This document shows, in pieces, positions 5,254 to 44,612 of a stretch of 64,000 nt of DNA (the first letter of the stretch is position 1; every line of letters starts with the position of its first letter). The position numbers and the translations under genes were made by a program. This DNA is from an uncultured Acidobacteriota bacterium (lineage in GTDB: Bacteria; Acidobacteriota; Thermoanaerobaculia; Gp7-AA8), in contig CAWGHO010000003.1 in assembly GCA_963822445.1 (NCBI GenBank), positions 160,001 through 224,000 of the forward strand, read 5' to 3'. Under the pieces are notes generated by a model, which did no database searches, was not told the origin of the DNA, and was given only the letters and a program-made list of their open reading frames with translations.

Positions 5254-5259
5254 CTGTCG

Positions 5260-6510: not shown

Positions 6511-6532
6511 GGGTATCCTTCGCCCCACTCCC

Positions 6533-9154: not shown

Positions 9155-9155
9155 A

Positions 9156-9989: not shown

Positions 9990-10001
9990 GGAGATCGAGC
10001 C

Positions 10002-10598: not shown

Positions 10599-10607
10599 AT
10601 CGGAACG

Positions 10608-11165
10608 ATGACCGGTCCGATCCTCATTACCGCAACGATTTCGACCGGGCCCGACGGCGTTTTCGCCGTCGGGCTCGACTCCGCGGGGGCTGCGTTGCCC
10701 GAGGAGGAGACGTTTCGTTTCGCGCTGCACTATTACGGGCGCGTGTTGTACGAGATGGCTCACACCCAGCGGTCTGTTCGGCGACTGCCTGAATGGACCG
10801 CGCGCATCGCGTCGACGGCTGTCGATCGGGAGACCGATTTCTTCGCCGTGGCCGGCGTGCAGGGAGCGATCGTCACGTCCCTGGCGCGGCCGCTCGCTAC
10901 CGTTCGCGTTGCATTGTGTACCGCCGGTTTGCGCGGGCGCGAAGTGACCGGCGATCTCTCGCCGCTGCGCGGCTCGACTCTCGCGCGCTCGGTCCTCGCC
11001 GTGTTTCAGGCCGTCATCCCCCAGCTATCGGACGACGTCTGTGCGTCGATTCCGTCGGCGCTGGCGAACATGAACGTGTCCTACGAGCTCACCCATCACT
11101 ACGCCGATCCGGAGAGCCATCGCGAGGTGCCGTCGACGGCCTACCTTGCCGCATCCTTCGTCTGA
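10608..11165 (+). CDS. Hypothetical protein
   Basis: Follows the matrixin gene at 9 bp; protein-like composition; no motif recognised. Confidence 0.6.
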   Translation: MTGPILITATISTGPDGVFAVGLDSAGAALPEEETFRFALHYYGRVLYEMAHTQRSVRRLPEWTARIASTAVDRETDFFAVAGVQGAIVTSLARPLATVRVALCTAGLRGREVTGDLSPLRGSTLARSVLAVFQAVIPQLSDDVCASIPSALANMNVSYELTHHYADPESHREVPSTAYLAASFV

Positions 11166-14637: not shown

Positions 14638-14985
14638 TTACGGCAGCTCGTTCTGCATCTGCTCCCACTCGCGCGTGATCGCGCGGTCGGCTTTCCTCTC
14701 CATCCTCCGGTAGAGCTCGAGCACCTTGCGACCGTGTGCTGTGAGGTGCGCGCCGCCTTGCGCCGATCCGCCGCGTTCCTTCTCCACGAGCGGCGAGCGG
14801 AAGGCCGCGTTCATGGTGCGGATCAGCGTCCACGCGCGCATGTACGACATGCCCAATTCTTCGGCGGCGGCGCGAATGGAGCCGCTGCGCGCCACCGCGT
14901 CGAGAAGGTCGGCCTTCCCCGGGCCCATCACGATCGTGCCTTCGGCATCGACGATCCGGATGCGCGGTTTGATCGAGTGCGGCAC
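14638..14985 (-). CDS. modE: ModE-type winged-helix regulator (HTH only)
   Basis: MGPGKADLL, GSIRAAAEELGMSYMRAW, RGG..GGAHLT; GTG start inferred. Confidence 0.85.
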   Translation of the reverse strand: MPHSIKPRIRIVDAEGTIVMGPGKADLLDAVARSGSIRAAAEELGMSYMRAWTLIRTMNAAFRSPLVEKERGGSAQGGAHLTAHGRKVLELYRRMERKADRAITREWEQMQNELP

Positions 14986-15011
14986 GGCGACCGATGATAG
15001 AAGATGTACCG

Positions 15012-15407
15012 ATGCGCCGGGCTTCGATCGTCCTCGCCCTTCTCCTTTCCGCATGCGCGACGGTTCAGCCGTACGTCTCCGTGCCCGTCCTCGCCGACCG
15101 GCTGTTTTGCGGCCTGTCGATTCCGGGCGGCGGCGAGGTGACGGAAGCGGAATGGCGCGCGTTCGTGGCCGAGGAAGTGACGCCGCGATTTCCGGACGGT
15201 CTCAGCATCTGGCGCGCGGAAGGGCAGTGGCGCGGCGCGGACGGCGTGATCGTGCGCGAGCCCACTCTGATCATCGAGATCTTTCACGACCATGACGTAC
15301 GCATCGATCGCAAGATCGTGGAGATCGCCGAAGCGTACAAAACACGTTTCCGGCAGGAGTCGGTGCTGCGTGTGACCATGCCCGCGCGGATGGAATTCAT
15401 CGATTAG
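15012..15407 (+). CDS. DUF3574 family lipoprotein
   Basis: LSAC lipobox; EVTPRFPDGLS, GQWR, YKTRFRQESVL. Confidence 0.85.
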   Translation: MRRASIVLALLLSACATVQPYVSVPVLADRLFCGLSIPGGGEVTEAEWRAFVAEEVTPRFPDGLSIWRAEGQWRGADGVIVREPTLIIEIFHDHDVRIDRKIVEIAEAYKTRFRQESVLRVTMPARMEFID

Positions 15408-15413
15408 AAGCTG

Positions 15414-15512
15414 GCCGGCGGGACGCCGGCGCACCAGCCGGCGAGGACGCCAGCGCTCCAACGAATCGGAGCGCCGCCGGCTCGGCGGCTGGTCCGCCGG
15501 CGTCCCGCCGGC
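15414..15512. repeat. Inverted pair of REP-like elements
   Basis: Two related ~45-bp copies in opposite orientation separated by AACGAATC. Confidence 0.8.
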
Positions 15513-15540
15513 CCACGCACACGCTATCCTGTCCACTCCC

Positions 15541-30929: not shown

Positions 30930-31133
30930 CTAGTCGCCGTCGGTCTCGAGGTCGTCGGGATCGCTGCCGGTCACACGCTCTTCCACGAGCACGCCGTTGC
31001 GAACGATGACGATGGCGGTGTTGGTCTGGCGGGCGATCTCCCGTGCGCGGCGAGCAGCGCGTAGCAGGGCCTGCGGCGCGGCCTGCATGTCGCCGTCCGG
31101 TAACTTCGACTTCAGATCGTCGTGGTGCGACAT
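30930..31133 (-). CDS. Small hypothetical protein
   Basis: GGAGG RBS; ALLRAARRAREIARQTNTAIVIVRNG pattern. Confidence 0.7.
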   Translation of the reverse strand: MSHHDDLKSKLPDGDMQAAPQALLRAARRAREIARQTNTAIVIVRNGVLVEERVTGSDPDDLETDGD

Positions 31134-31227: not shown

Positions 31228-31256
31228 TTGACGAACGGACTTTTTGCCGTCAGAAT
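31228..31256 (+). promoter_or_regulatory. Sigma70-type promoter of the redox operon
   Basis: TTGACG-N17-CAGAAT, overlapped by the TGACG-N14-CGTCA inverted repeat. Confidence 0.55.
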
Positions 31257-31303: not shown

Positions 31304-31846
31304 ATGCTCTGGCGCGCCACGGTTCAGAACGAGGACCCCGCGAAGCCCATCGGTTTCTCGCCCACGAATCAGCAAGCGCAGGCCGGCGATGCGCTCTTCT
31401 GGTTCAACGAAGACGCTCATGAGAGCCATCAACCCGTCCCCGACTCAGGCGTCTGGAACATCGAAGTCATTCCCCCCGGCAATTCCTCCGAGCAGTTGAG
31501 TCTCAGCAGTCCCGGCGAGCTCTCCTATCACTGCGCCATCCACACGAACGAAAAGGCGACCATCGTCGTCGCCAACGCCGTGCTCATCGCCGCCGGCTCC
31601 AACCCGCTCTTCGGCAGCACCGCCGTCACAACGGGCCAGTGCGTTTCGTGGGGCAACTCCGACGCCGAAGCGCACCAGCCCTGTCCCGACAGCGGCGACC
31701 CCTGGTTCGATGCTCCCATCCCCTCGGGCGACCTCTCGGCATCGGTACCGTTCAAAACCGCCGGCACGATCACCTATCACTGCGCCCTGCACCCGGACAA
31801 CGCTGCCGAAACGGGCACCCTCACCGTCACCAATCCGACCACCTGA
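31304..31846 (+). CDS. Tandem two-domain cupredoxin-like protein, no signal peptide
   Basis: Two repeats of WxNxD..HQP...G..xYHCxxH; AAGGGAG RBS; in-frame stop just upstream. Confidence 0.8.
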   Translation: MLWRATVQNEDPAKPIGFSPTNQQAQAGDALFWFNEDAHESHQPVPDSGVWNIEVIPPGNSSEQLSLSSPGELSYHCAIHTNEKATIVVANAVLIAAGSNPLFGSTAVTTGQCVSWGNSDAEAHQPCPDSGDPWFDAPIPSGDLSASVPFKTAGTITYHCALHPDNAAETGTLTVTNPTT

Positions 31847-31866
31847 AAATTAGAAAGGGGAGTTTC

Positions 31867-34161
31867 ATGGCCGACCACCTCGACCCCCTCCACACAAATC
31901 CCGACGCGGAGACGGAAGACCAGCAGAGCTTCGTCGCCAGCCGCCGCGACTTCATCAGCCTCGCCCTCGCCGCCGGATCCGGCGTCGCCCTCTGGCCGCT
32001 GTTTTCGCTCGAGGCCCAGGTTGCCGGCGCGTTCTGCGCGGGCATCACCGGCAAAGAGCTCGTCAATCCCGGCGAGATCGTCGGCGGCGGCGGTTTCCTC
32101 CGCGGCCTCATCGACCTCGGCGTCGAAGCCCGCAGCGTCACCTACTACCAGCCGTCGACCGTCAAGAAGACACCTCCCGCCGCGGGCGGCTATGTCTGCG
32201 TGAAGCCGACGCTGCGCGCCTACCAGGGCTATCAGGGCTGGAGTCTCGATCCGAAGAACCGGGTCACCGTCGTCGGCACGTCAGGTCCCGGCCCCACGCT
32301 GCGCGCGAAAGTCGGCGACAAGATCGAGCTGATCTTCCTCAATCGCGTCGACCGCGCGAAGTTCAACCAGACCTCGCTGACGAGCATCAAGAGCGCGCCG
32401 AACAAATGCGACACGGTCCTGAACACGGATGGCACCGAGGCTTATCCGGCGAATGACAAAGCGCGGTTTCCGAACTGCTTCCACGCTTCGAACACCAGCA
32501 ACCTCCATTTCCACGGCACGCACACCACGCCGGGAACCTTCGGCGACAACGTTCTGATCGGCGTCCTGCCGCATCCCGGGATGAACCCGACCAACGCCAT
32601 CGACACCGCGAAGCGGGCCTATGCCGACTGGGACGCCGGCAAGGACCCCACCAAGTGGCTCATCGAGGACGCGATGGCCAACCTTCAGGTGATGCTCGCC
32701 GCGGCCGAAGCGGCGAAGGACGACGCGCTGGCGACGCAACTCCGCGACGCCATCAACACCAACGAGACCAACCTCGCCCACGGCGAGTGGCCGCAGTACT
32801 GGCCGGGCTTCTATCCCCACTTCTTCGACCTTCCGATCTGGAGCGGCAGCCTGCAGAAGTTCCCGAAGATGGGGCAGTCGCCGGGAACGCACTGGTATCA
32901 CTGCCATCAGCACGGCTCGACCGCGCTGCAGCTCATCAACGGCATGGGCGGCCTGTTCATCATCACCGGCGATTACGACGATCAGATCCTGCGCATCGGC
33001 GCGGCCACGCCCGACAAGCCGAAGTACAAAGAAAAGGTCATGATCTTCCAGATCTTCGGCGAGCAACCGCAGCAGATCCAGGCCAGCCCCACCACCAACC
33101 AGATCACCGTCAACGGCCAGGTCGTCCCCACCATCAGCATGAAGAAAACGGAAGTGCAGTGGTGGCGTATCGGCGACGCGGCCATGAAAGCGCACGGCGT
33201 CGGCGAGTTCGCGTTCCTCGACGAGCAGACCTACAACTACTACGTCAACAACCCCACCGCGCTGCAGGTGCCGGCGCAGGCCGGCAGCCCGACCATGGCG
33301 CCGCTGCCGGCGATCGATCCCGCCAAGGTCCCGAATCTCTACCAGACCGCGCAGGACGGCGTGCAGCTCGACTGGACCAACTTCACGCGCCTTTCGAAGA
33401 TGACCTCGACCATGCAGGCGCCGGGCAATCGCGCCGATTTCCTGGTCAAGGCGCCGGCCAACGCCGCCACGAGCTACCTCGTGTTCTGGTTCGCGGAGAA
33501 GGGTCCTCCCGCGCCGGCGGACATCCGCCTGAACCTCGTGGCCAAGATCGTGACGGCCGGTGATCCGGTCGGCGTCAACACGACCCTGCCCACCACCGAA
33601 GAGGAGTATCCGAAGCAGCCCGATTTCCTCACCGACGTCACCGACGAGGAGATCGAAGGCCGCCATCGCACGCTCGTCTTCAGCATGGAAGGCGGGATCG
33701 GTACCCAGCCGGTCTTCAAAATCGACGGCAAGCAGTTCGAGGAGGGGGTCATCGACCAGCTCATGCTCCTCGGCAATGCCGAAGAGTGGACCGTGGAGAA
33801 CATCTCCGGACGCTCGGTGATGCATCCGTTCCACATCCACATCAACCCGTTCCAGGTCACGGAGATCTTCGATCCGCTGACCATGAAAGAGCCGCTGAAG
33901 CTTCCGGCGCCGTGGGTCTGGTGGGACACCTTCCCGATTCCCGCGGGCGTGCAGAAGATCGCCAACGGCAAGTTCCAGTTCGACCCTGTGACGAACTTAC
34001 CGGTTCTCGAAGGACCTCCCGGTCACATCAAGATCCGCACGCGGTTCGTCGACTACCCCGGCACTTACGTTCTGCACTGCCACATCCTCGGCCACGAAGA
34101 CCGCGGAATGATGCAGCTCGTCAAGGTCATGGACAACAAGACCGTCGTCAAGCATCACTGA
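31867..34161 (+). CDS. Tat-exported multicopper oxidase
   Basis: SRRDFI Tat motif; NLHFHG, WYHCHQH, HPFHIH, HCHILGHEDRGM. Confidence 0.93.
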   Translation: MADHLDPLHTNPDAETEDQQSFVASRRDFISLALAAGSGVALWPLFSLEAQVAGAFCAGITGKELVNPGEIVGGGGFLRGLIDLGVEARSVTYYQPSTVKKTPPAAGGYVCVKPTLRAYQGYQGWSLDPKNRVTVVGTSGPGPTLRAKVGDKIELIFLNRVDRAKFNQTSLTSIKSAPNKCDTVLNTDGTEAYPANDKARFPNCFHASNTSNLHFHGTHTTPGTFGDNVLIGVLPHPGMNPTNAIDTAKRAYADWDAGKDPTKWLIEDAMANLQVMLAAAEAAKDDALATQLRDAINTNETNLAHGEWPQYWPGFYPHFFDLPIWSGSLQKFPKMGQSPGTHWYHCHQHGSTALQLINGMGGLFIITGDYDDQILRIGAATPDKPKYKEKVMIFQIFGEQPQQIQASPTTNQITVNGQVVPTISMKKTEVQWWRIGDAAMKAHGVGEFAFLDEQTYNYYVNNPTALQVPAQAGSPTMAPLPAIDPAKVPNLYQTAQDGVQLDWTNFTRLSKMTSTMQAPGNRADFLVKAPANAATSYLVFWFAEKGPPAPADIRLNLVAKIVTAGDPVGVNTTLPTTEEEYPKQPDFLTDVTDEEIEGRHRTLVFSMEGGIGTQPVFKIDGKQFEEGVIDQLMLLGNAEEWTVENISGRSVMHPFHIHINPFQVTEIFDPLTMKEPLKLPAPWVWWDTFPIPAGVQKIANGKFQFDPVTNLPVLEGPPGHIKIRTRFVDYPGTYVLHCHILGHEDRGMMQLVKVMDNKTVVKHH

Positions 34162-34188
34162 CGAGTAGGTTCGTAGAGGAGAACGGTC

Positions 34189-36714
34189 ATGCGGAAGCTC
34201 CTGCTGTGGCTCATCGTAATCATCGTGGTTGTCATCGCCGGTCTGTGGATCTGGAAGCTCCTCGAAAAAGACGAAGACAAACCGGTAGCCGGCCAGGTCC
34301 TCGATGAGGCGAAGCTGGCCGGACGCGACGCGGCGAGCATGCCCGGCGCGGACGAGGACTACTACGCCGACATGGATTACGGCGTGACCAAAGATCCCGC
34401 GCTGATGCATGCGCGGCTCTCGCCGTACGTTCCGGGAATCACGCCGCAGGACGCGGTGCGCCGCGCCGCCATCGGCCGCAACAACTGGGTCGTCTGGACC
34501 GCGGGCAACGATCGTCTGTGGGACATCCTCTCGGTCAGCAGCTTCGGCAATCTCGATCTGCTCAAGACCGTCTCCAACCATCCCAATCTCAAGTTCAGCC
34601 GCGACACGCGCTGGCAGTACCTCGGCCTGGTGAACGAGCCCTGCTACAAGAAGAGCACCGCGCCGCGCGCCGACCGTTTCGGCCTCTGGCTCGATGAGCG
34701 GGTCACCGGCGGCGACTGCAAACCCGATCCCTTCGAGAACGAGCAGAAGTATCCCGGCGTGAAGTACGGCGCGCGCGGAACGGGCAAGCTGCCGGTCGGC
34801 TCGTACTACGGCTACGGCACGGGCATCGTCGGCCTGCGTCTCTTCCCGAATCCGAACTTCGACGAGAAGGCCGCGGCGGCGTGGGACCCGGTGCGCTACT
34901 ACACCGATCCCGCGTACTACCAGAGCGACAAGCTGGTGAAGCCGTATCGCGTGGGCATGTCCTGCGGCTTCTGCCACGTCGGCCCCAATCCCTCGAATCC
35001 TCCCGCCGATCCCGAGAACCCGAAGTGGGAAAACCTGAACAGCAACCCCGGCGCGCAGTACTTCTGGATCGATCGCATCTTCCAGTGGGAGCCCGACCAG
35101 GGCAACTTCATCTTCCAGCTCTTCCACACCTCCCGTCCCGGCGCGCTGGACACGTCGCTGGTCTCCTCCGACCAGATCAACAACCCGCGCACGATGAACG
35201 CGATCTACAACCTGCAGGGACGCCTGGACATCTCCCGCCGCTGGGGTCAGGAGAAGCTCGGTCCGGGATCGAACGACAACAAGCAGCTCAATGATTACGT
35301 CCCCGCCGGCACGCCGCTGACGCAGTACTTCGAGAAGCCGGACACGGTTTACACGACACACGTGCTCAAGGACGGCGCGGACTCGGTCGGCGCACTGGGC
35401 GCGCTCAATCGCGTCTACCTGAACATCGGCCTGTTCAGCGAAGAATGGCTCCTCCACTTCGTTCCGCTCCTTGGCGGACGGGACATCACGCCGATTCCCA
35501 TCGCCGCCGCGCGCAAGAACTCGACGTACTGGAACGCGAACGAGATGCAGACGCCCGATCTGGCGCTCTTCTTCCTCGCCAGCGCCACTCCCGATTACCT
35601 GGCGAAGGCGCCGGGTGGTGCGGCCTTCATGGCTGACGCGCCGCTCATCCCGCAAGGCAAAAAGGTCTTTGCCGAGCGTTGCGCGCGCTGCCACTCGAGC
35701 AAGCTGCCCGAGAAGACTCTCGCCAATCACTTCAAACCCGGCTGCGTCGGCCCGGACTACATGAAGTGCTGGAACGACTACTGGCAGCACACCAAGACGC
35801 CGGAGTTCAAGACCGAGATGACGGCCATGGTCAACGACCCGACGTTCCTCGACGGCAACTTCCTGTCGAACGACGTCCGCGTTCCGGTGACGCTGCTGCA
35901 GACCAACGCCTGCAGTCCTCTGGCGACGAACGCGATCCGCGGCGACATTTGGGACAACTTCTCCTCCGAGTCGTACAAGAACCTTCCCTCGGTCGGAAAG
36001 GTGATGATCCACCATCCGTACACCGGCGAGCCGTCCTGGTACGAGCTGCCGGACGGCGGACGCGGATTCACCCGCCCCGCGTCGCTGGTCAGCCTCTGGT
36101 CGACCGCGCCGTTCCTGCAGAACAACTCCGTCGGACCGTTCGAGTGGACCGGATCGGTCGCCGGCCGCATGAAGTCGTTCGACGCGTCGATCATCGAAAT
36201 GCTCTGGCCGGAGAAGCGCCAGGGAAGCAAGAGCTATCAGACCGCGTCGGGCAAAGCCCATCCGGGCGTCATCGACGTCACCACCGCGACGGCCTACCTC
36301 AAGGTTCCGAAAGGCTATCTGCCGAAGGACCTCCAGGGCCTGACCGGAATCCTGGGCTGGTTCCTCCCGAACGCGTTCCACGACGACAGCCTGCAGGTCG
36401 GTCCGATTCCGAAGGGAACGCCGGTCAACCTGCTGTCGAACATCAATCTGAAGACGCCGACCCCGCAACTGCTCAGCCTCGGCAAGACCCTGATCAAGGA
36501 CCTCAAGAAACTGCCGCGCAATGCGACCGACGACGATGCGCGAAAGGCATTCGCGAACGCGGTTCCCAAGCTGCTGGCGGCATCGAAGTGTCCCGATTTC
36601 GTGGTCAACCGCGGTCACTACTTCGGCACGGACTTCCTGCCCGCGAGCGAAGGGGAGCCGGGCCTGACCGACGCGGACAAGCAGGCTCTCATCGCGTATC
36701 TGAAGACGTTCTGA
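34189..36714 (+). CDS. Membrane-anchored dihaem cytochrome c, RoxA/MauG-like
   Basis: N-terminal TM; CGFCH and CARCH; SLWSTAPFLQNNSVG; GHYFG...ALIAYLKTF. Confidence 0.85.
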   Translation: MRKLLLWLIVIIVVVIAGLWIWKLLEKDEDKPVAGQVLDEAKLAGRDAASMPGADEDYYADMDYGVTKDPALMHARLSPYVPGITPQDAVRRAAIGRNNWVVWTAGNDRLWDILSVSSFGNLDLLKTVSNHPNLKFSRDTRWQYLGLVNEPCYKKSTAPRADRFGLWLDERVTGGDCKPDPFENEQKYPGVKYGARGTGKLPVGSYYGYGTGIVGLRLFPNPNFDEKAAAAWDPVRYYTDPAYYQSDKLVKPYRVGMSCGFCHVGPNPSNPPADPENPKWENLNSNPGAQYFWIDRIFQWEPDQGNFIFQLFHTSRPGALDTSLVSSDQINNPRTMNAIYNLQGRLDISRRWGQEKLGPGSNDNKQLNDYVPAGTPLTQYFEKPDTVYTTHVLKDGADSVGALGALNRVYLNIGLFSEEWLLHFVPLLGGRDITPIPIAAARKNSTYWNANEMQTPDLALFFLASATPDYLAKAPGGAAFMADAPLIPQGKKVFAERCARCHSSKLPEKTLANHFKPGCVGPDYMKCWNDYWQHTKTPEFKTEMTAMVNDPTFLDGNFLSNDVRVPVTLLQTNACSPLATNAIRGDIWDNFSSESYKNLPSVGKVMIHHPYTGEPSWYELPDGGRGFTRPASLVSLWSTAPFLQNNSVGPFEWTGSVAGRMKSFDASIIEMLWPEKRQGSKSYQTASGKAHPGVIDVTTATAYLKVPKGYLPKDLQGLTGILGWFLPNAFHDDSLQVGPIPKGTPVNLLSNINLKTPTPQLLSLGKTLIKDLKKLPRNATDDDARKAFANAVPKLLAASKCPDFVVNRGHYFGTDFLPASEGEPGLTDADKQALIAYLKTF

Positions 36715-36740
36715 ACGGCGTTTGAGCTGGGGGGAAACGA

Positions 36741-38645
36741 ATGGCGAGTGATGCGACCCGTTCTGCCGAGTATGAGTACGTCGTAGTTGGATCGGGAGCC
36801 GGCGGCGGGACGCTCGCCGCACGGCTCGCCGAATACGGGCACAAGGTGTTGTTGCTCGAGGCCGGCGGCGATCCGATGAAGTTGCAGGGATCGGATCCCG
36901 CCTACCCGGACAAGGAACGGTTACCCGAGGATTACGAGGTACCGGTCTTCCATCCGTTTGCTTCTGAAAACTCGGCGATGTCGTGGGACTTCTTCGTCCG
37001 CCACTACACCAATCAGCAGCTGCAGGAAAAAGATCCCAAGTGGGTCAAGGACTTCGACGGCAAGCCGGTCAACGGCGTCCTCTATCCACGCGCCGGCACG
37101 CTCGGCGGCTGCACCGCGCACAACGCGCAAATCATGGTTTACCCCCAGAACGACGACTGGAAGTTCATGGAGACCCTCACCGGCGACAGCTCCTGGTCGC
37201 CGGAGAACATGCGCCAGTACTTCGTGCGGATGGAGAACTGCCGCCACCGCCCGGGCTGGCGCTTTCTGTACAACTTGCTGCGCATCAATCCCACGAAGCA
37301 TGGTTTCCGAGGATGGCTGAGCACGGAAAAGGCGCTACCTGAGGCGGCGCTCGAGGACAAGGGGATCCAGGAGTTCATTGCCGAGACCATCGCCGCGGAG
37401 ATCGAAGACGAAGGCTCGTCGCTTGCCGAGCGTCTGAAGTGGCAGGTCCGCGGCCACGCCGATCCCAACGACTGGCGTCTGGTCAAAGACGAATCGACGG
37501 GCCTCCGTTACCCGCCGCTCTCCACGCACAAACATCGCCGGATCGGTGCGCGCGAGCGGGTAATCGACGTCGCCGCGAAACATCCCGACAAGCTGACCGT
37601 GGAGCTCGACGCGCTCGTGTCGCGCGTTCTTTTCGACGATCAGAACCGCGCCATCGGCGTCGAATACATCAAAGGCGCACGGCTCTATCGCGCCAGCCGC
37701 AAGCCCAATCCCGATCCCGGCCAGGTCAAACAGGTCTACGTCTCGGGCGAGGTCATTCTCTGCGGTGGTGCGTACAACACGCCGCAGATGCTGATGCTCT
37801 CCGGCATCGGGCCGAAGGAACATCTCGAGAAATTCAACATCCCCGTGCGCGTCGACCTGCCGGGCGTCGGCTCCAACCTGCAGGACCGCTACGAGGTCGG
37901 CGTCGTCAATCGGATGAACTTTCCGGAATGGTGGTGCCTCAAGGGCGCCAACTTCGAGAAGGGCGATCCGCAATACGAGCAGTGGACGAAGGGGAAGGGC
38001 GTCTACACGACCAACGGCGCGGTTGCGGCGATCATCAAACGATCCGCCAAAGAACGCCCGACGCCGGACCTGTTCATCTTCGCCCTCCTCGGATTTTTCC
38101 GCGGCTACTTCCCCGGATATTCGAAGATCTTCAAGGAAAAGAAGAACTACCTGACCTGGGCCATCCTCAAGGCCCAGACCCAGAACTGCGCCGGTCAGGT
38201 GCGGCTGCTCTCCAACGATCCGCGCGACGTGCCGTACATCGACTTCTGCTACTTCACCGAAGGCAACGACGTCGAGGGAACCGATCTCGCCTCGGTCGTC
38301 GAGGGCATCAAGTTCGTGCGCAAGCTGACCGAGAAGATGCGCAAGGAAGGCTTCATCGCCGCCGAAGAGCTGCCCGGTCCGGACGTCAACACCGATGAGG
38401 AGATCGCCGACTTCGTGCAGACCCACGCCTGGGGCCATCACGCGTCCTGCAGTTGCCCGATGGGCGTCCGTGACAAGGGCGGCGTGGTCAACACCAACTT
38501 CCAGGTCTACGGAACGAAGGGTCTGCGGATCGTCGACGCCTCGATCTTCCCGAAGATCCCCGGCTTCTTCATCGTCACCTCGGTCTATATGATCGGCGAG
38601 AAGGCCGCGGACGTGATTCACGCCGCGTCAGGGAAGGCATCGTAA
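36741..38645 (+). CDS. GMC family FAD oxidoreductase
   Basis: [49 protein letters not shown]. Confidence 0.93.
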
Positions 38646-39763
38646 TGCGATCGACTGTTGCGCTCTGTCTCGTGTTGTTCGCATTTGGCGCCTTCGCGTC
38701 CGATCACGCCGATCCGGCCGTGCTCGCGACCAAAGAGGCCGGCCTGACCGATCTCTTCTTCTATCCGAACGGCGACGAGTACATCCTGATGCTCTGCGTG
38801 CGGCCGGCACTCACCGCAAACCCGCCGTACAACCTCGAGCCCTTCACCTACAAGATCAACTTCGATCTGCACACCGGTCTCTCCTTCGACAACGCCGCGG
38901 ACAAGGCCCGCTACGGCGGCACGGTCATCAACCCGTCGAGCATCAAGCCGGACGTGACCATCACCTACACGCTCAACAACGACGCCACGCTCAAGTCGAA
39001 GACCATCACCGGCCTCACCAATCCCGAGCGCATCAGGGTCTACACCGGCGTGCGCGACGATCCGTTCATCTTCCCGAAATTCTTCGGCAAGAACACCATC
39101 GCCGCGGTCTTCTCCATCCCCAAGTCGTCGTTCCCGGCCGCACAGGAGAACTTCATCATCTACGGCGAGGCCTGGGAGCATGGCGACGAGCTGGTGGACA
39201 CCGTCGGCCGCTCGAATCGCAGCCAGAACGGCCGCTATCAGTTCCTGACCACCGTGCCCGTTCCGAAGCAGGTCGCGAAGCTGAAGGAGGAGTACGACAA
39301 GACCACGAAGATCTTCAACTTCCTCAATCGCGAAACGAAGACCCAGGGTCTGGCCGCGGCGTATCACAACCTGCTGCAGCTCTATCCCTACGACCTGACC
39401 AATCCCGACGTGATGATCTTCACCACGAAGTTCCCACCGGGATATCCGAATGGCCGCCTGCTGACCGACGACGTGGCCTACATCAGCTGTCAGTACGGCG
39501 ACTGCGCGCTCATGTCGCTGTCCTACGCCGAGAGTCCGCAGTTCCCGCGCGCGACGGTGAACGACAAGCCGTTCATGCCCGACTTCCCCTTCCTCGCCGA
39601 TCCCTGGCCGCCGTCCCCCGCGCCGCCGATGAAGGGTTTCGGCTGCACCACCATCCTCTGGATCGCGCTGATCCTGACCGTGGCCCTGGTGATCGTGTTG
39701 TGGATCGTGTCGCGGAAGAAGTGGAAGCACCAGTATCCGACGGTCGATCCCGCGAAGCTTTAA
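38645..39763 (+). CDS. DUF4331-like secreted protein with C-terminal TM anchor
   Basis: Signal peptide then SDHADP; GVRDDPF; GYPNGRLLTDDV; TAATG overlap with the GMC stop. Confidence 0.75.
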   Translation: MRSTVALCLVLFAFGAFASDHADPAVLATKEAGLTDLFFYPNGDEYILMLCVRPALTANPPYNLEPFTYKINFDLHTGLSFDNAADKARYGGTVINPSSIKPDVTITYTLNNDATLKSKTITGLTNPERIRVYTGVRDDPFIFPKFFGKNTIAAVFSIPKSSFPAAQENFIIYGEAWEHGDELVDTVGRSNRSQNGRYQFLTTVPVPKQVAKLKEEYDKTTKIFNFLNRETKTQGLAAAYHNLLQLYPYDLTNPDVMIFTTKFPPGYPNGRLLTDDVAYISCQYGDCALMSLSYAESPQFPRATVNDKPFMPDFPFLADPWPPSPAPPMKGFGCTTILWIALILTVALVIVLWIVSRKKWKHQYPTVDPAKL

Positions 39764-39838
39764 TGCCGTAGGACGATTACGTCTTGCGCCGCGGAGCGCG
39801 GGCGCGATAGAAGTGCCTCTGAAAAGAGGCAGTTCGTC

Positions 39839-42800
39839 ATGTCGTTATTTTTCAGATATTTGTGTGTCTTTGCCTTCTTCTGTTCTTGGGATGTCGCCGC
39901 CCAGCAGGCAGATCTCGCGGTCGTGAAAACCGGCACGACCAAGGCCAGCCGTGGCGAGCAGGTGTCCTACAACGTCCTGCTGACGAACGAAGGTCCGAAC
40001 GATGCCATCTCCGTCACGATGGTCGATCAGATTCCCGACGGCATGACGTTCGTCTCGGCGACCCAGAATGACGGACCGGCCTTCAACTGCCCCCTGCCGC
40101 CTGTGGGCTCGACGGGCTCGATCAATTGCACGAACGTGCTCTTCGCCGCAGGCGCCTCGGCCACGTTCACCTTTGTCTTCGCCATCGATGAGAACGTGGC
40201 CCTCGGCACGATTTTCACCAATATCGCCACGGCCAGCTCGCAAACACCCGATCCCGACAACTCCAACAACTCCAGCGAGGCCGTCACGGTGATGCCGGCC
40301 GCTGACCTGGAGGTGATCAAGACCGGTCCCGCGACTGCTTCAGCGGGGAGCGACGTCACCTACATGATCGAAGTGACCAACGACGGTCCCGATGAAGCGG
40401 TGTCCGTTGTGCTCGATGATGACATTCCCGCTGGTATGACCTTCGTCTCGGCGACCGCGCCCGCGGGATTCTCCTGCACCGACCCGGGCGTGGGACTCGG
40501 CGGCACCGTCACCTGCACAGCCACGACGCTGGGCATCGGTGCAAGTGCGACGTTCACGTTCGTGTTCAACATCGACGGGGCCACGCCGCCCGGCACGATC
40601 TTCAGCAATGTCGCCGAGGTTGCGAGCAAGGAGGAGGACGAACCGGTGATGTTCGATCCGAACGAGGAGAACAACTCCTCGGTCGTCGTGACCGTCGTTC
40701 CCTTTCCTCCCCAGGCCGACCTCGGCGTGATGAAGTCCGGGCCTGGCGCGGCCGGGCCGGACACCGATGTCACGTACACGATTTCGCTGACGAACGGCGG
40801 ACCCGCTGCAGCGACGAATGTCTCCCTCACGGACACGCTTCCGGGGACCATGACTTTCGTCTCGCTCGCCCAGACCGGCCCGGCGCTGAACTGCACCACT
40901 CCCGCGGTCGGCGCTGGCGGCACGGTGACCTGCACCGCCGCGAGCTTCCCGGCCGGGCAGACGGCGACGCTCACGCTCATCGCGCACATACCGGCGGACA
41001 CGCCTTCCGGCACGGAGTACTCGAACCAGGCCGTCGTGAATTCGGACCAGGACCCGAACGAAGAGAACGACGTCGCCACCGCCGCGACGATCGTCTCGGC
41101 GGTGGACATCTCCGTGGTCAAGAGCACCGCGGCGACCGCGGTCAATGCGGGAGACACCATCAGCTACACGATCAACGTCGCGAACGCCGGTCCTGATGCG
41201 GCGTTGACGGTGACGCTCGTCGATCAGCTTCCGCCGGGGACGACCTTTGTTTCGTTCATACAGAACAACGGCCCGTTCGCGGAGTGCACCCGGCCTCAGG
41301 TGGGCGCGTCCGGCACGGTCCAATGCACGTTCCCCATGGGCATTGGCGGCACCGCACAATTCACGCTGCAGATCCTCGCCGGCGACACGACGTCCATCAC
41401 CAACACCGCCGTGGTGACGACGGAAAACTTCGACGTCGACAACTCCGACAACAGCTCGAGCGTCACCACTCCCGTGACGCCGCAGGCGAATCTCGCCGTG
41501 GCGAAGAGCGGTCCGGCGACGATCACCGCCGGCACGGACGTGACCTACACAGTCACGCTCACCAACAACGGGCCGTCGACCGCGTCGAATGTCGCGCTGA
41601 CTGACGACGTGCCGGCTGGCATGACGTTCGTGTCCGCGACGCAGAACACCGGACCGACCTTCATCTGCGGCGGGGGAGCGACGATCACCTGCACGATCGG
41701 GACGTTCGCTCCGAGCGCGACGGCGACGTTCACCTTCGTCATGCACGTCGCGCCGTCGGCCACGGGATCGATTGACAACGTCGCCACCGTTGCGGCCACG
41801 ACCGCCGATCCCGCGGGCGGCAATAACACGTCAACTGTTTCGTCGACCGTCACGACGAGCGCGAATCTCGCGGTGGTGAAGAGCGGTCCGGCCTCCGCGG
41901 TCGCCGGTGAAACGGTGACGTACACCATCACCGCGAGCAATGCCGGTCCGTCCACGGCGGTGAATGTGACCGTCTCGGACATCCTGCCGCCGAACACCAC
42001 GTTCGTCTCCGCCACTCCGAATTGCAGCGAGGCCGCCGGTACGATTACCTGCACCATCGCCTCGTTCGATCCATCCGCGACAGCGACGTTCACATTCGTA
42101 TTTGCCGTCTCGCCGACGGCGACCGGCTCCGTCGTCAACACCGCCTCGATCACGTCCCCGACTCCTGACCCGGCGCCCACGAACAACAGTTCAACGACCA
42201 CGGCCAGCCTGAGCTCGAGCGCGGACGTGAGCGTGACCAAGAGCGGACCGGCTGCCGTCGCGGCCGGATCGAACGCGACCTACACCGTCACAGTTGCCAA
42301 CGCCGGTCCGTCGACCGCGTCGAACGTCACACTCACTGACACGCTCCCGCCAAATGCCACGTTCGTCTCCGTGGAACAGACCGCCGGTCCCACGTTCAAC
42401 TGCACGCCGCCCGCTGTGGGAACGACCGGTCAGCTCGTCTGCACGATCGCCGCGCTCGCTCCGGCGGCTCCGGCGACCTTCACCATCGTCGTGAACGCGA
42501 ACGCCGGCGCGTCGGGCACGGTCGACAACACCGCCACCGTGTCCTCGTCGACCGCCGATCCGAATGCGGCGAACAACACCGCGACGTCGAGCGCCGGTAT
42601 CGATCCCGGACCGACCGACCTCACCATCACCAAGACCGCGAGCGGCGACCGCTTCGGCGCGGGCAGCGCGGTGACCTACACCATCGCCGTCACGAACAAC
42701 GGCCCGAGCGTCGCCTTCGGCACGACGGTCACCGATGTTCTTCCCGCCGGAACCACCCTGCTCTCGGCGACCCCGAGCCAGGGCACCTGCACCGGCACGA

Positions 42801-43063
42801 CAACCGTCGTCTGCACCCTCGGCACACTGGCGCCGTCATCGTCGGCGACGGTGATTCTCGAGGTCCGGCTGCCGCTCACCATGGGCTCGGTCTCCAATAC
42901 CGCGAGCGTCTCCGCGGCGAACCTCGACACCAACGGCGCGAACAACGCTTCCACTACGGCTCTGGCCGTCGTCTCCGAGATTCCGTCGTTGTCCGAGTAC
43001 GGACTGATGCTGCTGGCTATGATGCTTGCGATGATTGGGATGGTGACCCTGCGGATCAGATAG
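39839..43063 (+). CDS. Surface protein with eight DUF11 repeats and IPTL-CTERM
   Basis: Eight ADLxVxK...NxGP...DPxxxNN-type repeats; tail IPSLSEYGLMLLAMMLAMIGMVTLRIR. Confidence 0.9.
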   Translation: MSLFFRYLCVFAFFCSWDVAAQQADLAVVKTGTTKASRGEQVSYNVLLTNEGPNDAISVTMVDQIPDGMTFVSATQNDGPAFNCPLPPVGSTGSINCTNVLFAAGASATFTFVFAIDENVALGTIFTNIATASSQTPDPDNSNNSSEAVTVMPAADLEVIKTGPATASAGSDVTYMIEVTNDGPDEAVSVVLDDDIPAGMTFVSATAPAGFSCTDPGVGLGGTVTCTATTLGIGASATFTFVFNIDGATPPGTIFSNVAEVASKEEDEPVMFDPNEENNSSVVVTVVPFPPQADLGVMKSGPGAAGPDTDVTYTISLTNGGPAAATNVSLTDTLPGTMTFVSLAQTGPALNCTTPAVGAGGTVTCTAASFPAGQTATLTLIAHIPADTPSGTEYSNQAVVNSDQDPNEENDVATAATIVSAVDISVVKSTAATAVNAGDTISYTINVANAGPDAALTVTLVDQLPPGTTFVSFIQNNGPFAECTRPQVGASGTVQCTFPMGIGGTAQFTLQILAGDTTSITNTAVVTTENFDVDNSDNSSSVTTPVTPQANLAVAKSGPATITAGTDVTYTVTLTNNGPSTASNVALTDDVPAGMTFVSATQNTGPTFICGGGATITCTIGTFAPSATATFTFVMHVAPSATGSIDNVATVAATTADPAGGNNTSTVSSTVTTSANLAVVKSGPASAVAGETVTYTITASNAGPSTAVNVTVSDILPPNTTFVSATPNCSEAAGTITCTIASFDPSATATFTFVFAVSPTATGSVVNTASITSPTPDPAPTNNSSTTTASLSSSADVSVTKSGPAAVAAGSNATYTVTVANAGPSTASNVTLTDTLPPNATFVSVEQTAGPTFNCTPPAVGTTGQLVCTIAALAPAAPATFTIVVNANAGASGTVDNTATVSSSTADPNAANNTATSSAGIDPGPTDLTITKTASGDRFGAGSAVTYTIAVTNNGPSVAFGTTVTDVLPAGTTLLSATPSQGTCTGTTTVVCTLGTLAPSSSATVILEVRLPLTMGSVSNTASVSAANLDTNGANNASTTALAVVSEIPSLSEYGLMLLAMMLAMIGMVTLRIR

Positions 43064-43073
43064 GAGATCAATC

Positions 43074-43781
43074 ATGCTCGCACTCGTTCTCAGCTCGCTG
43101 CTCGCATTTGCACCGCCGGCAGATGCTGCCGCTGCGGATCTCACCGGCGCGTGGAAGCACGTCCGCGAAGACGGCGCGACCGGTGTCTGGATCCTCACCG
43201 GCGACCATTTCTCGATCGCCTGGTACAAGAGCGATCCGGCAAAGTTCATCTACACCGAAGGCGGGAGCTGGTCGAAGAGCGACGACGGGATCTCGCTGAC
43301 CTACGAATTCGATACCGCCACTCCTGCACGCGTCGGAACCTCGCGCACGATCGTCGTCAAAGCATCGGCCGATCGCATGACCGCCGACGGCGCGAACTGG
43401 ACGCGCATCGACAAAGGCGTGCCCGGCGCACTCGAAGGCGCGTGGCTGATGACCGGTCGCAAACGCAACGGCGAGATCACCACCCGCAAACCGGGCGCGC
43501 GCCGGACGATGAAAATCCTTTCCGGCACGCGCTTCCAGTGGATCGCCTACAACGTCGAGACGAAAGAGTTCTTCGGGAGCGGGGGAGGGACGTACAGCAC
43601 CGCCGACGACGGCAAGTACACCGAGAACATCGAGTTCTTCTCGCGCGACGACGCCAAAACCGGCCGCAGTCTCGAATTCCAGTACGACATGGTCGAAGAG
43701 GCGTGGCATCACATCGGGAAGAGCACCGCCGGCGAGCCGATGCACGAGGTCTGGAACCGCCGCGAAAAACTCGGCATCTAG
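43074..43781 (+). CDS. Secreted protein with two lipocalin-like (LxGAW) repeats
   Basis: Signal peptide; LTGAW and LEGAW; GGGTY, YTENIEFFSRD. Confidence 0.7.
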   Translation: MLALVLSSLLAFAPPADAAAADLTGAWKHVREDGATGVWILTGDHFSIAWYKSDPAKFIYTEGGSWSKSDDGISLTYEFDTATPARVGTSRTIVVKASADRMTADGANWTRIDKGVPGALEGAWLMTGRKRNGEITTRKPGARRTMKILSGTRFQWIAYNVETKEFFGSGGGTYSTADDGKYTENIEFFSRDDAKTGRSLEFQYDMVEEAWHHIGKSTAGEPMHEVWNRREKLGI

Positions 43782-44612
43782 ATGTGCCCCGTCTGCGGAG
43801 GAGAGCGGTTCGCGTCGTCGACGATCGCCGGACTCGATCTTCGCCGCTGCCGCACTTGCGGATTGCGCATCAGCGCGATCGCCGGCGGAGCGGGAACGAA
43901 TTACGCCGACGTCGATGACGAGGCGTACCTCCAGTCGATTGGCCGCGTGCGCCGCGAGCAGGGCCAGGCGATCGTCGCCTTCGTTCGCGAGCATGAGCGC
44001 GGCGGCGAATGGCTCGACGTCGGCTGCGGCTTCGGTTACGTGCTCGAAGCCGCGCGCGCGGCAGGCTTTCGCGTTCGCGGTCTCGAGCCCGATGCGAAAG
44101 CAGCGAAGGCCGCGCGCGACCGCGTCGGCAACGTCGAACAGGGAGTGCTGGACGAACGCACTCCCGCCGCCGACATCCTCTCCACCCTCGATGTCATCGA
44201 ACATCTTCACGACCTCAACGCCTTCGCCGAACTGGTGAAACGGAAAGCGCGCGCGATGTGGGTGATCAAAGTCCCGTCCAGCGAAGGCGCGTTCTTCCGC
44301 ATCGCCCACGCCCTGCGCATCGGCAGGGCGGTGAAGCGCCTCTGGCAATCCGAGTACGAGCATCCGCACCGCGTCTACTTCGATCAACCGTCGCTCACCC
44401 GATTCCTCACCAGACACGAATTCGAGGTCGTCGCCGTCCGCTATCTCCCGGAGATGCCGACGAGCACCGTCGTCGATCGCCTGACCCTCGACGGACGCGT
44501 CCCGCGGTGGAAAGCGCGACTCGCGCTGCCGCTCTTCTTCGCCGTGAATCTCCTCGAGCGCATGCGAGGGAAATCGGACGCGATCGTAGTCCTCGCCGTC
44601 AGACGCGTTTGA
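43782..44612 (+). CDS. Class I SAM-dependent methyltransferase with N-terminal Zn ribbon
   Basis: CPVC..CRTC; LDVGCGFG; DVIEH. Confidence 0.85.
   Translation: MCPVCGGERFASSTIAGLDLRRCRTCGLRISAIAGGAGTNYADVDDEAYLQSIGRVRREQGQAIVAFVREHERGGEWLDVGCGFGYVLEAARAAGFRVRGLEPDAKAAKAARDRVGNVEQGVLDERTPAADILSTLDVIEHLHDLNAFAELVKRKARAMWVIKVPSSEGAFFRIAHALRIGRAVKRLWQSEYEHPHRVYFDQPSLTRFLTRHEFEVVAVRYLPEMPTSTVVDRLTLDGRVPRWKARLALPLFFAVNLLERMRGKSDAIVVLAVRRV

Follow-up and report, generated by a model that had tools for sequence, protein, structure and literature searches.

Five co-directional open reading frames (A to E; Table 1) occupy positions 31304-39763 of the window, i.e. the whole 64,000-nucleotide stretch that was analysed. 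They are tightly spaced, with intergenic gaps of 20 bp (A-B), 27 bp (B-C), 26 bp (C-D) and -1 bp (D-E); at the last junction the start of E overlaps the stop of D in a TAATG, and a purine-rich ribosome-binding site precedes every one of the five starts. The open reading frames of the window thus reproduce the order and gaps given in the preliminary description of this DNA, and domain calls and motifs uphold the identities it had assigned to all five products. It had also placed the genes behind one promoter: the candidate ahead of A is indeed the sole sigma-70-like site on either strand between 30500 and 44800, but shuffled sequences yield 1.5 +/- 1.1 such sites, so that the count is not above chance. 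Given the gene spacing, this single promoter-like site and the lack of any terminator-like hairpin between B and C, all five genes are probably transcribed together in this genome. The cluster has the five genes described, but the co-directional run does not stop at 39763; it goes on for three further genes, spaced by 75, 10 and 0 bp. The spacer downstream of E folds with a minimum free energy of -43.6 kcal/mol (z = -3.87; an equally good fold in 0 of 200 shuffles) and contains no T-run; it is a possible partial terminator or processing site bounding the module.

Table 1. Features of the gene cluster in window coordinates; module numbers refer to the two-module reading discussed in the text.
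Feature	Module	Coordinates	Strand	Length	Remarks
Sigma-70-like promoter candidate ahead of A		31228-31256	+		TTGACG-17-CAGAAT; supported by position, not statistics
Gene A, tandem cupredoxin	1a	31304-31846	+	180 aa	
Gene B, Tat-signal three-domain multicopper oxidase (MCO)	1b	31867-34161	+	764 aa	
Gene C, membrane-anchored dihaem c-type protein	2a	34189-36714	+	841 aa	
Gene D, GMC-family FAD oxidoreductase	2b	36741-38645	+	634 aa	
Gene E, DUF4331-like protein	2, accessory	38645-39763	+	372 aa	
Structured spacer 3' of gene E		39764-39838	+	75 nt	Folding energy compared with shuffles

The cupredoxin A lies below the cut-offs of both family models it resembles (Pfam Cupredoxin_1, 23.3 bits against 27; NCBIfam amicyanin, 30.9 bits against 110.2). 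Its two domains retain the His...Cys-x2-His pattern; the axial Met position is taken by Glu in domain 1, and in domain 2 a 3-residue insertion places Asn there, followed three residues later by a conserved Glu. The full type 1 (blue) copper ligand set with axial Met is thus found in neither domain, and C-x2-H-x2-E is the rule among the relatives of A. A lacks a signal peptide, and a longer N-terminus is ruled out by an in-frame TGA at 31289; judged by eye, a signal peptide is also missing from the N-termini of its relatives, and the MCOs adjoining them retain RR[DEQ]F. In B, Cu-oxidase_2 (48.1 bits; cut-off 20.4) and Cu-oxidase_3 (29.7; cut-off 21) are scored above their Pfam cut-offs, and the models of CueO and PhsA reach only about 50 bits (cut-offs 525 and 950). 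The copper motifs (H214/H216, H345/H347, H653/H656/H658 and H737-C738-H739...H743...M748) are invariant in 21 relatives, as are R26, R27 and F29 of a Tat motif, S25-R26-R27-D28-F29, which leads into a hydrophobic stretch (a motif reading, no predictor); this confirms the Tat-signal MCO with all four copper motifs that had been proposed.

The two genes travel together. All 4 orthologous MCO loci of the genus, and 30 of 36 from metagenomes, have the cupredoxin gene directly upstream; the remaining 6 offer less than 400 nt of upstream sequence or are cut by the contig end. Complex prediction, which had been recommended for pairs of the five products and was run for this one, favors binding, with an ipSAE of 0.82 (median of 3 runs) against 0.00 for the best control; solved complexes reach this mark in 116 of 157 cases and mismatched pairs in 2 of 215, counts that hold only roughly here, as the prediction used alignments of our own. 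At least 82% of the contacts agree between runs, with a partner pLDDT of at least 90. The model supports binding of A to B; its score may partly mirror the packing of cupredoxin domains in solved multidomain copper oxidases. The predicted binding in turn suggests that A is co-exported with B through Tat: A would most likely fold and acquire copper in the cytoplasm, bind in folded form to the N-terminal half of the MCO, leave with it via Tat, and serve in the periplasm as an extra electron-entry subunit for the reduction of O2.

B resembles CueO, the CotA-like laccases and PhsA in its four copper motifs, its Tat signal and its Cu-oxidase_2 and Cu-oxidase_3 domains; it differs from them in its length of 764 aa, with long insertions, and in the dedicated gene for a signal-less cupredoxin that partners it, the predicted interface between the two being large. 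No described MCO is known to us to have a separate cupredoxin subunit of this kind, and none turned up in the literature searched. The arrangement is that of the Tat 'hitchhiker' pairs (NxrA/NxrB, the small and large subunits of hydrogenases), in which a signal-less cofactor partner adjoins the gene bearing the Tat signal; NxrB is described, in the relevant part of PMC3578206, as such a signal-less, cofactor-bearing partner encoded next to the Tat-signal subunit. Here, however, the passenger is a copper protein rather than an iron-sulfur subunit, and its co-export is a deduction from the predicted complex.

Gene C carries an N-terminal hydrophobic helix (residues 2-25) and two CxxCH sites (C259/C262/H263 and C498/C501/H502), both sites invariant in 69 sequences, in agreement with the transmembrane-anchored, 841-aa dihaem cytochrome of the preliminary description; its orthologues are anchored either by a transmembrane helix or by a lipobox. 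NF040606 is the only family model to match, with 34.2 bits where its cut-off is 150; an NCBIfam scan to E 0.01 brings up none of the RoxA, RoxB and RoxC models, and a phmmer search of the PDB to E 1 does not find RoxA (4b2n). The AF2 model (pLDDT 89.1, pTM 0.90) has as its best 7 matches among 48,161 chains only members of the bacterial CCP/MauG superfamily (Z 13.0-9.0), the next match falling to Z 4.8; RoxA is the sole Foldseek match of note (E 1.5e-3), and profile-profile comparison to a neighboring RoxA-like family gives 98.0% probability (E 1.9e-13) over a span bounded by the second haem site and the MauG motif. Within this span, residues 640-649 (APFLQNNSVG) align to APYLHNGSVP, the histidine of the MauG motif (P-Y/F-x-H-N-G-S-V-P) being Gln in C and His in paralogues. 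C is thus a member of a large unnamed family with the bacterial CCP/MauG/RoxA fold, and the fold assignment made earlier holds.

The FAD oxidoreductase D scores above cut-off for GMC_oxred_C (105.8) and GMC_oxred_N (64.4) and below it for the choline dehydrogenase BetA equivalogs (234.6 against 605, 198.8 against 732); choline, alcohol and aryl-alcohol oxidases are among the solved proteins closest to it in sequence. As only 16 residues precede the FAD-binding GxGxxG (GSGAGGG, beginning at residue 17), there is no room for a signal peptide, and an export signal is absent from the GMC protein here and in most loci. A natural fusion (P0241), in which a GMC domain without signal is followed by HRRPLR, a transmembrane helix and the cytochrome domain, places the GMC part on the cytoplasmic side, as read from the order of its segments. 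In the versions from Nitrospira and from beta- and gammaproteobacteria, the GMC protein bears a Tat signal with a lipobox; there the partners can share the periplasm, and a picture of opposite membrane faces is thus not general. E matches Pfam DUF4331 (PF14224) at 39.5 bits (cut-off 27), over the last 57 positions of the profile only (365-421 of 421), and its relatives bear the same label. It carries a signal peptide ahead of a mature N-terminus that is invariant (SDHADP), forms a beta-sandwich and has a transmembrane helix at its C-terminus, in keeping with the anchored DUF4331-like protein of the preliminary description; the sandwich is weakly similar to CBM9, ethylbenzene-dehydrogenase-gamma and CDH-cytochrome folds in Foldseek (E 3.6e-4 to 1e-2), and its structural matches do not rise above background (Z at most 7.4).

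A neighborhood survey seeded with the cytochrome, as the preliminary description had proposed, separates core from accessory genes. The cytochrome is followed by a GMC gene in 66 of the 73 testable loci (those with at least 700 nt downstream), across Acidobacteriota, Proteobacteria, Nitrospirota, Chloroflexota, Verrucomicrobiota, cyanobacteria and other phyla; these two genes form the core, and the DUF4331-like gene, present at 11 of 80 loci, recurs as an accessory. Other recurring neighbors are RoxA-like dihaem proteins (13), DyP-like proteins (11), patatin-like lipases (9) and members of the animal-haem-peroxidase family (9). In the window, the neighbors that suggest a lipid are absent, save for an unlinked patatin-like gene 10 kb upstream.

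The same survey bears on whether the five genes belong together, as had been claimed. The window's MCO and cupredoxin occur at none of the 80 cytochrome loci, which span many phyla, nor at any of 16 in the genus; conversely, the cytochrome, GMC and E genes occur at none of the 36 metagenome MCO loci, 18 of which extend at least 2.5 kb downstream, and cytochrome, GMC or DUF4331 genes are lacking from the 4 MCO loci of the genus. Among 60 related genomes, orthologues of the cytochrome (60-71% identity; G008, G033, G002, G006, G011, G003, G032) and of the MCO (55-57% identity; G014, G031, G004, G021) are never found in the same genome. We therefore read the stretch, with about even confidence once the mechanisms proposed here are included, as two modules, A-B and C-E, each conserved on its own and brought together in this lineage alone, rather than as a five-part machine. 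That the five products nevertheless form one envelope oxidation system in this lineage, for example with the MCO-cupredoxin pair providing the dihaem enzyme, on a membrane scaffold, with an O2-reducing electron sink or a source of radicals, is quite unlikely. The tight gaps, the one promoter-like site and a B-C gap free of any terminator-like hairpin speak for it, as do contigs from three other studies that bridge the B-C junction (X1 record 3, X3 record 17, X4 record 26); these, however, are about 93-95% identical to the window and represent near-identical relatives, not independent events, so that the link between MCO/cupredoxin and cytochrome is essentially unique to this genome, an outcome that the preliminary description had itself named as refuting its five-gene system. 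At one locus of the genus (L093, in G006), the cytochrome orthologue is directly preceded by another MCO, of 870 aa, and no GMC gene follows, which could point to a recurrent MCO-cytochrome link in the genus; but the genus is rich in MCO paralogues (matches in 28 of 61 genomes, many with several places), so that chance adjacency is not rare. Together with the empty counts in both directions and the disjoint genome sets, this leaves the single-system claim unsupported. The idea of a membrane scaffold, raised along with it, suits C, D and E but not A and B; no characterised pathway with this gene combination came up in the literature searched.

For C, D and E, the most likely role is to oxidise a membrane-soluble substrate from the two sides of the membrane, with substrate class and reaction order deduced as follows. 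The dihaem enzyme would be tethered at the outer face of the inner membrane and the GMC flavoenzyme at its inner face, accompanied by E as a periplasmic, C-terminally anchored beta-sandwich protein; the N-terminal haem would most likely oxygenate or peroxidise an unsaturated acyl chain or isoprenoid, and the flavoenzyme would then most likely oxidise the alcohol so formed. The choice of a membrane lipid follows from the patatin-like lipase, peroxidase-type and RoxA-like neighbors and from the olefin-acting oxygenases of the same fold: in the portions of the sources that treat their substrates, RoxA acts on polyisoprene (PMC6311187) and PA2077/PA2078 act on oleate (PMC4496055).

The core fold of C is common to YhjA, MauG, BccP and MbnH (Z 11.3-12.1) and to BthA (Z 9.4); MauG, MbnH, BthA, YhjA and the classical CCPs are, however, of 300-450 residues, against 841 in C, and have other partners, MauG acting on a protein substrate. 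The largest structural overlap is with RoxA 4b2n (349 residues, 20% identity, Z 9.0, rmsd 4.1). Like RoxA and RoxB (4b2n; NF050033/NF050034), C is a large dihaem c-type protein with a CCP/MauG core, long loop insertions and two CxxCH sites; as in RoxA, it has a conserved C-terminal histidine in N.GH..GT; by motif correspondence only, this residue (H810) could provide the C-terminal haem with its second ligand. C is membrane-anchored and its orthologues are membrane- or lipid-anchored, whereas the Rox proteins are secreted; its family is typically paired with a GMC gene, a pairing not known to us for Rox genes. The motif histidine is replaced by Gln, APFLQNNSVG standing against the PYFH-NGSVP of RoxA given in the motif description of PMC6311187. 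The oleate 10S-dioxygenase and 7,10-diol synthase of Pseudomonas aeruginosa (PA2077/PA2078) are periplasmic dihaem proteins of the CCP family which, in the part of PMC4496055 concerned with their reaction, oxygenate an unsaturated lipid rather than reduce H2O2. Set beside C by description only, they would be the closest functional analogy for the proposed mechanism. They act as a tandem dihaem pair and are not known to have a flavoenzyme partner.

Two other roles for C and D have to be weighed against this. With the two modules kept, C to E may instead form a small respiratory branch, in which the GMC protein is a dehydrogenase reducing membrane quinone from either face and the anchored dihaem protein, in the manner of E. 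coli YhjA, acts as a quinol-dependent peroxidase or oxidase that disposes of periplasmic H2O2 or lipid peroxides. YhjA (9qdt) is the second-best structural match of C (Z 12.1 and rmsd 4.6 over 241 aligned residues), the occurrence of the GMC protein on either membrane side and the membrane attachment of both partners would be accounted for by a quinone link, and the neighbors are mostly peroxidases. YhjA-type quinol peroxidases, however, have a third haem domain for quinol oxidation, whereas C has two haems; its 841 aa, its long insertions and its greatest aligned length, with RoxA, make it more like the oxygenase branch; and those of its orthologues that are anchored as lipoproteins lack a transmembrane segment close to the quinone pool. 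We consider this role unlikely. A hand-over of H2O2 from a GMC oxidase to a dihaem peroxidase, the counterpart of the fungal laccase/peroxidase/aryl-alcohol-oxidase toolkit suggested in the preliminary description, is very improbable. GMC oxidases commonly release H2O2, the solved relatives of D include such oxidases, the cytochrome has the CCP fold, and both proteins are periplasmic in the lineages with a Tat-lipobox GMC; but without an export signal here and in most loci, and with the cytoplasmic position in P0241, the H2O2 would arise on the wrong side of the membrane to reach a periplasmic haem enzyme in this genome, and the fungal analogy fits poorly.

Returning to the two-module reading, it is a tentative and rather doubtful proposition that both modules are undescribed enzyme assemblies, a copper hitchhiker MCO and a two-face membrane oxidation device, gathered here under one promoter. 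Were it true, an MCO would gain two extra copper centres with axial glutamate from a separately encoded tandem cupredoxin brought through the Tat pore, the first copper 'hitchhiker' subunit of an MCO; a widespread two-enzyme device, with a RoxA-like dihaem oxygenase outside and a GMC enzyme inside, would oxidise a membrane lipid or isoprenoid, joined in the periplasm by the DUF4331-like protein as third component; and in this lineage the copper oxidase might consume what the haem enzyme produces or give protection from it. A GMC/FAD enzyme genetically tied to a haem protein is also a feature of the flavocytochrome dehydrogenases (cellobiose dehydrogenase, the membrane-bound fructose and alcohol dehydrogenase complexes). 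Flavoenzyme and haem partner share one compartment only in the lineages with a Tat-lipobox GMC, however; here they are predicted on opposite membrane faces, and the haem protein has the fold of an enzyme rather than that of an electron carrier.

The stretch from A to E is two conserved pairs joined end to end, since the neighbourhood surveys made from the cytochrome and from the multicopper oxidase (MCO) mirror each other. The first pair is the cupredoxin and the MCO (A and B), the second the dihaem cytochrome and the GMC flavoenzyme (C and D), to which the DUF4331-like E is an accessory. The survey seeded with the cytochrome, which had been proposed in the preliminary description, finds relatives in 18 of 61 genomes of the same class, seven of them with orthologue-like cytochromes at 60-71% identity and the others with lipoprotein paralogues at 41-47%. 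Among the 16 loci fetched from the genus, the GMC gene is the recurrent neighbour of the cytochrome; E is near it in one (genome G033), and the MCO and cupredoxin in none. A scan with one genome per species gives 596 cytochrome relatives, and the best 80 of these 596 loci, which were examined, come from Acidobacteriota, alpha-, beta-, gamma- and deltaproteobacteria, Nitrospirota, Chloroflexota, Verrucomicrobiota, cyanobacteria, Rokubacteria, Binatia and Methylomirabilales. Of these 80, 73 are testable, with 700 nt or more beyond the cytochrome gene, and 66 of them have a GMC gene that starts no more than 1 kb downstream on the same strand; E lies within 10 kb of the cytochrome in 11 of the best 80, the window's MCO and cupredoxin in none. 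An HMM from the MCO alignment has no match on 96 cytochrome loci and also misses the divergent MCO of locus L093; an added scan for the motif HCHxxxHxxxx[MLF], which a distant MCO lacking the motif would escape, has L093 as its sole match.

Seen from the other side, MCO orthologues (55-57% identity) occur in four genomes (G014, G031, G004 and G021), none of which has a cytochrome orthologue; in all four a tandem cupredoxin is encoded directly upstream of the MCO, with neither cytochrome nor GMC nearby. Scanned with the MCO alignment, metagenomes yield 36 loci whose relatives are at least 39% identical: in 30 a cupredoxin of one to three domains is encoded directly upstream, the remaining six are truncated by the contig end or leave less than 400 nt ahead of the MCO gene, and cytochrome, GMC and E are found in none of the 36, of which 18 have at least 2.5 kb downstream. 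The single five-part envelope oxidation system of the preliminary description thus failed its own test; tight, operon-like packing in a single genome is here no predictor of a functional unit. The unpublished genomes G002 and G025 enter the genome tallies of cytochrome, MCO and E and one row of the table of 16 loci, and no alignment or model.

What had been read from the genes themselves stands. A is a tandem cupredoxin and B a Tat-signal MCO with all four copper motifs; C, of 841 residues, has a hydrophobic helix at its N-terminus and CxxCH at two sites, D belongs to the GMC flavoenzymes, and E is DUF4331-like, with both a signal peptide and a transmembrane helix at the C-terminus. The five co-directional frames, with a third-position GC of 0.82-0.89, are separated by gaps of 20, 27, 26 and -1 bp, as had been noted, and have a ribosome-binding site at every start. 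The 75-nt spacer after E folds strongly (z -3.87). The co-directional string runs on past E to 44612, so that 'five genes' is a choice of boundary; none of the three following genes (see the table) was found beside the cytochrome in relatives, and none of the window genes flanking A-E on either side has a match in the 16 genus loci, which means that conservation does not extend to the wider context. The window corresponds to positions 160001-224000 of contig C3 in a genome (G000) of 6.0 Mb and three contigs, and the named relatives of its proteins are mostly from Thermoanaerobaculia metagenome bins.

Coordinates of features in the window, elsewhere in its genome (G000) and in compared loci
Feature	Place	Position	Strand	Remarks
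67-aa ORF	window	30931-31133	-	divergent from A; strong ribosome-binding site; no family match
Sigma-70-like site	window	31228-31256		well placed ahead of A; single occurrence not above shuffled-sequence count
A, cupredoxin	window	31304-31846	+	
B, MCO	window	31867-34161	+	
C, cytochrome	window	34189-36714	+	
D, GMC	window	36741-38645	+	
E, DUF4331-like	window	38645-39763	+	
DUF11-repeat protein	window	39839-43063	+	1074 aa; eight DUF11 repeats and IPTL-CTERM sorting signal
DUF4488-like gene	window	43074-43781	+	10 bp gap after DUF11-repeat gene
Methyltransferase gene	window	43782-44612	+	0 bp gap after DUF4488-like gene
MCO paralogue	G000, C3	238465-240912		
MCO paralogue	G000, C3	997542-999698		
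MCO paralogue	G000, C3	1727445-1729520		
Paralogous GMC-cytochrome pair	L031 (G000:C2:1212000-1231900)	~7377-11233	-	
870-aa MCO	L093	6639-9251	+	
LRR-Roc-COR-TIR protein	L093	12726-15767	-	
Four-gene DyP set and its surroundings	L095 (Nitrosomonas europaea ATCC 25978)	4949-9494 and 14684-17545		
Tandem RoxA-like genes	L076	14686-17828		
ECF sigma factor gene	L124	11450-12058		Pfam Sigma70_r2, Sigma70_r4
ECF sigma factor-like gene	L115	3571-4227		likeness to L124 protein by eye
Single-domain cupredoxin	L150	1957-2214		downstream of MCO relative

The junction between B and C (34161/34189) is genuine: three other studies contain DNA contigs, at about 93-95% identity, that bridge it, but the bridging contigs are close kin, not independent events. 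One locus runs counter to the independence of the two pairs: in G006, of the same genus (L093, the same place as L019), the cytochrome orthologue stands directly behind a different MCO, whose C-terminal half matches Pfam Cu-oxidase_3 and Cu-oxidase_2, and is followed by no GMC, its downstream neighbour being the LRR-Roc-COR-TIR protein. Chance is a sufficient explanation of this adjacency, though not the only one, because MCO paralogues are numerous in the genus. Most genus genomes have several MCO places, so the family is expanded here; the window's own genome has at least three further large paralogues, with open frames of 834-964 aa.

In the first pair, the cupredoxin has no signal peptide, and a missed upstream start that would supply one is ruled out by an in-frame TGA at 31289; the N-termini of its relatives are alike (MLWR..., MPFQ..., MGQF...), and the MCOs retain RR[DEQ]F. 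When MCO residues 40-764 are modelled together with the cupredoxin, the predicted complex scores 0.82 (median of three runs), and the best of three controls 0.00. Among solved complexes 116 of 157 attained the mark of the pair, among mismatched pairs 2 of 215, counts that hold only roughly since own alignments were used here. At least 82% of contacts are shared between the runs, the partner has a pLDDT of at least 90, and the approximately 200 predicted contacts fall on MCO residues 49-61, 92-115, 163-189, 283-288 and 399-408. The model supports binding, and could partly reflect the packing of cupredoxin domains in solved multidomain copper oxidases. In the simplest reading the two would form a heterodimer in which the signal-less cupredoxin exits the cytoplasm together with the Tat substrate MCO, in likeness to other signal-less subunits such as NxrB, for which export with a Tat partner is proposed in PMC3578206. 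No description of a cupredoxin as passenger or subunit of an MCO was found in the open-access literature, and the conserved pair with its predicted interface is new; common in soil metagenomes, it offers a simple test case for Tat co-export of copper proteins.

Both cupredoxin domains keep His...Cys-x2-His, with glutamate at the position of the axial methionine in domain 1 and, after an insertion, three residues beyond it in domain 2, and C-x2-H-x2-E is the rule among relatives; to judge by these residues, the protein would hold a naturally occurring type 1-like copper site whose axial residue is glutamate. The cupredoxin of L150 has the canonical axial Met (HCEIHPGM), unlike the upstream Glu-type partners. 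In L124 and L115, two loci of the genus, the cupredoxin-MCO pair is followed by the ECF sigma factor and ECF sigma factor-like genes of the table.

The family of the cytochrome counts over 7,700 database members, which bear the label 'hypothetical' and no Pfam domain, from methanotrophs, nitrifiers, soil Acidobacteriota, marine gammaproteobacteria and others. Cytochrome C itself has no solved relative by sequence and no Pfam family outside the CxxCH region. Its AF2 model from 69 sequences (pLDDT 89.1, pTM 0.90) has RoxA (4b2n, E 1.5e-3) as its one notable match in Foldseek, and in a wide structural aligner matches seven chains well clear of the rest, all of the bacterial CCP/MauG superfamily: hydrazine synthase chain C (Z 13.0), YhjA (12.1), MauG (11.8), BccP (11.5), MbnH (11.3), BthA (9.4) and RoxA (9.0, with 349 residues aligned at 20% identity), the next row having Z 4.8. 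In profile-profile alignment it matches the RoxA-like dihaem proteins whose genes accompany some orthologues (98.0% probability, E 1.9e-13), over a span between the second haem site and the MauG motif, with APFLQNNSVG in the cytochrome against APYLHNGSVP in the RoxA-like set. The motif N.GH..GT near the C-terminus, which contains H810, is kept in the family and resembles the invariant GH..GT of that set; on the model of RoxA H641 (review PMC6311187), H810 is a candidate for the second ligand at the C-terminal haem. Membership of the RoxA/RoxB family is ruled out, as the cytochrome matches neither the family models nor 4b2n by sequence.

The GMC starts 16 residues ahead of its GxGxxG, as do most orthologues. 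In a natural fusion, the metagenome protein P0241 (1476 aa), a signal-less GMC is followed by a positively charged stretch, one transmembrane helix and the cytochrome domain, the reverse of the usual gene order; the predicted topology of this chain has the flavoenzyme on the cytoplasmic side and the haem domain on the outer one, and the fusion shows that the two act at one place on the membrane. A second long protein, P0242, was rejected as a fusion, since it reads as a frame-error run-through. Two forms of the GMC, a split that is itself new, can be told apart: the window's subgroup, with the motif GSGAGGGT and no signal, and a subgroup of beta- and gammaproteobacteria and Nitrospira, with GSGAGGGP, a Tat signal and a lipobox, about 47-50% identical to the window's GMC (L044, L052, L055, L065, L067, L076, L101 and L105). 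The latter is probably a Tat-exported lipoprotein, both partners then being periplasmic lipoproteins.

As to what the second pair does, we tentatively favour, at somewhat less than an even chance, an oxidation in two steps: the haem enzyme would oxygenate or peroxidise an unsaturated lipid or isoprenoid at the outer face of the membrane, and the flavoenzyme would then oxidise the resulting alcohol. Such a substrate is favoured because of the genes that join the pair elsewhere (listed below) and because the oxygenases known with this fold, RoxA acting on polyisoprene (PMC6311187) and PA2077/PA2078 acting on oleate (PMC4496055), target C=C bonds of hydrophobic chains. A membrane-soluble substrate, reachable from either face, would also reconcile the cytoplasmic and periplasmic arrangements of the GMC. 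The main rival takes the pair as a quinol peroxidase, with YhjA as model, and does equally well on this last point, as a shared quinone pool would fit a GMC on either face.

Outside this window, genes beside the cytochrome-GMC pair include patatin-like lipases (9 loci), animal-haem-peroxidase-family genes (9 loci), DyP-like genes with three partners (11 loci) and tandem RoxA-like dihaem genes (13 loci). The DyP-like gene belongs to a recurrent four-gene set, in which it stands third between proteins of 151 and 433 aa and one of 404 aa, these three being unknowns with no Pfam or NCBIfam match; the order in L095 is kept in L111, L085, L096, L099 and L102, and the animal-haem-peroxidase-family gene is often on the other side. 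The RoxA-like genes, of about 500 aa, flank the pair in several phyla (L076; upstream of the cytochrome in L084, L091, L092 and L094), and their products exceed the cut-off of NCBIfam NF040606, with 165-180 bits, and match Pfam RoxA-like_Cyt-c. Searches of the open-access literature found nothing relevant on the cytochrome-GMC pairing, and the module, with or without its DUF4331-like protein, is real, widespread and, as far as these searches reach, undescribed. The fixed partnership points to a common envelope chemistry, which culturable carriers of the cytochrome family (Marinobacterium rhizophilum DSM 18822, Methylocapsa polymorpha RX1 and Nitrosomonas europaea ATCC 25978) open to testing. 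The window's genome has a second, paralogous pair (L031), with an intact GMC (47% identity) and a cytochrome matched in frames -2, -3, -1 and -3, that is, with at least three frameshifts, reflecting either a pseudogene or indel errors of assembly.

E, a new accessory of this module, falls in a 480-member subgroup labelled DUF4331, for which no paper was found in the open-access literature, and whose invariants are a mature N-terminus SDHADP, RDDPF, PNGR.L.DD and a cysteine pair. It has no match among solved structures by sequence. The model of E (pLDDT 87) shows a beta-sandwich, then helices and lastly the anchor, and Foldseek matches it weakly to CBM9 1i82 (E 3.6e-4), to ethylbenzene dehydrogenase gamma and to the cytochrome domain of CDH; the wide aligner gives Z of at most 7.4, mostly to immunoglobulin-like chains, and a protein atlas search with the homologue P0189 gives a single match at 0.78, below the useful range. 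Fold matches being at background level, no DOMON or haem-b fold is claimed. E occurs in 2 of 61 related genomes, each time beside the cytochrome-GMC pair (as for the cytochrome, the tally takes in G002 and G025), and in 11 other loci, directly after the GMC in five, upstream of the cytochrome in four and further off in two. In the window its start overlaps the GMC stop, which suggests that the two genes are translationally coupled.
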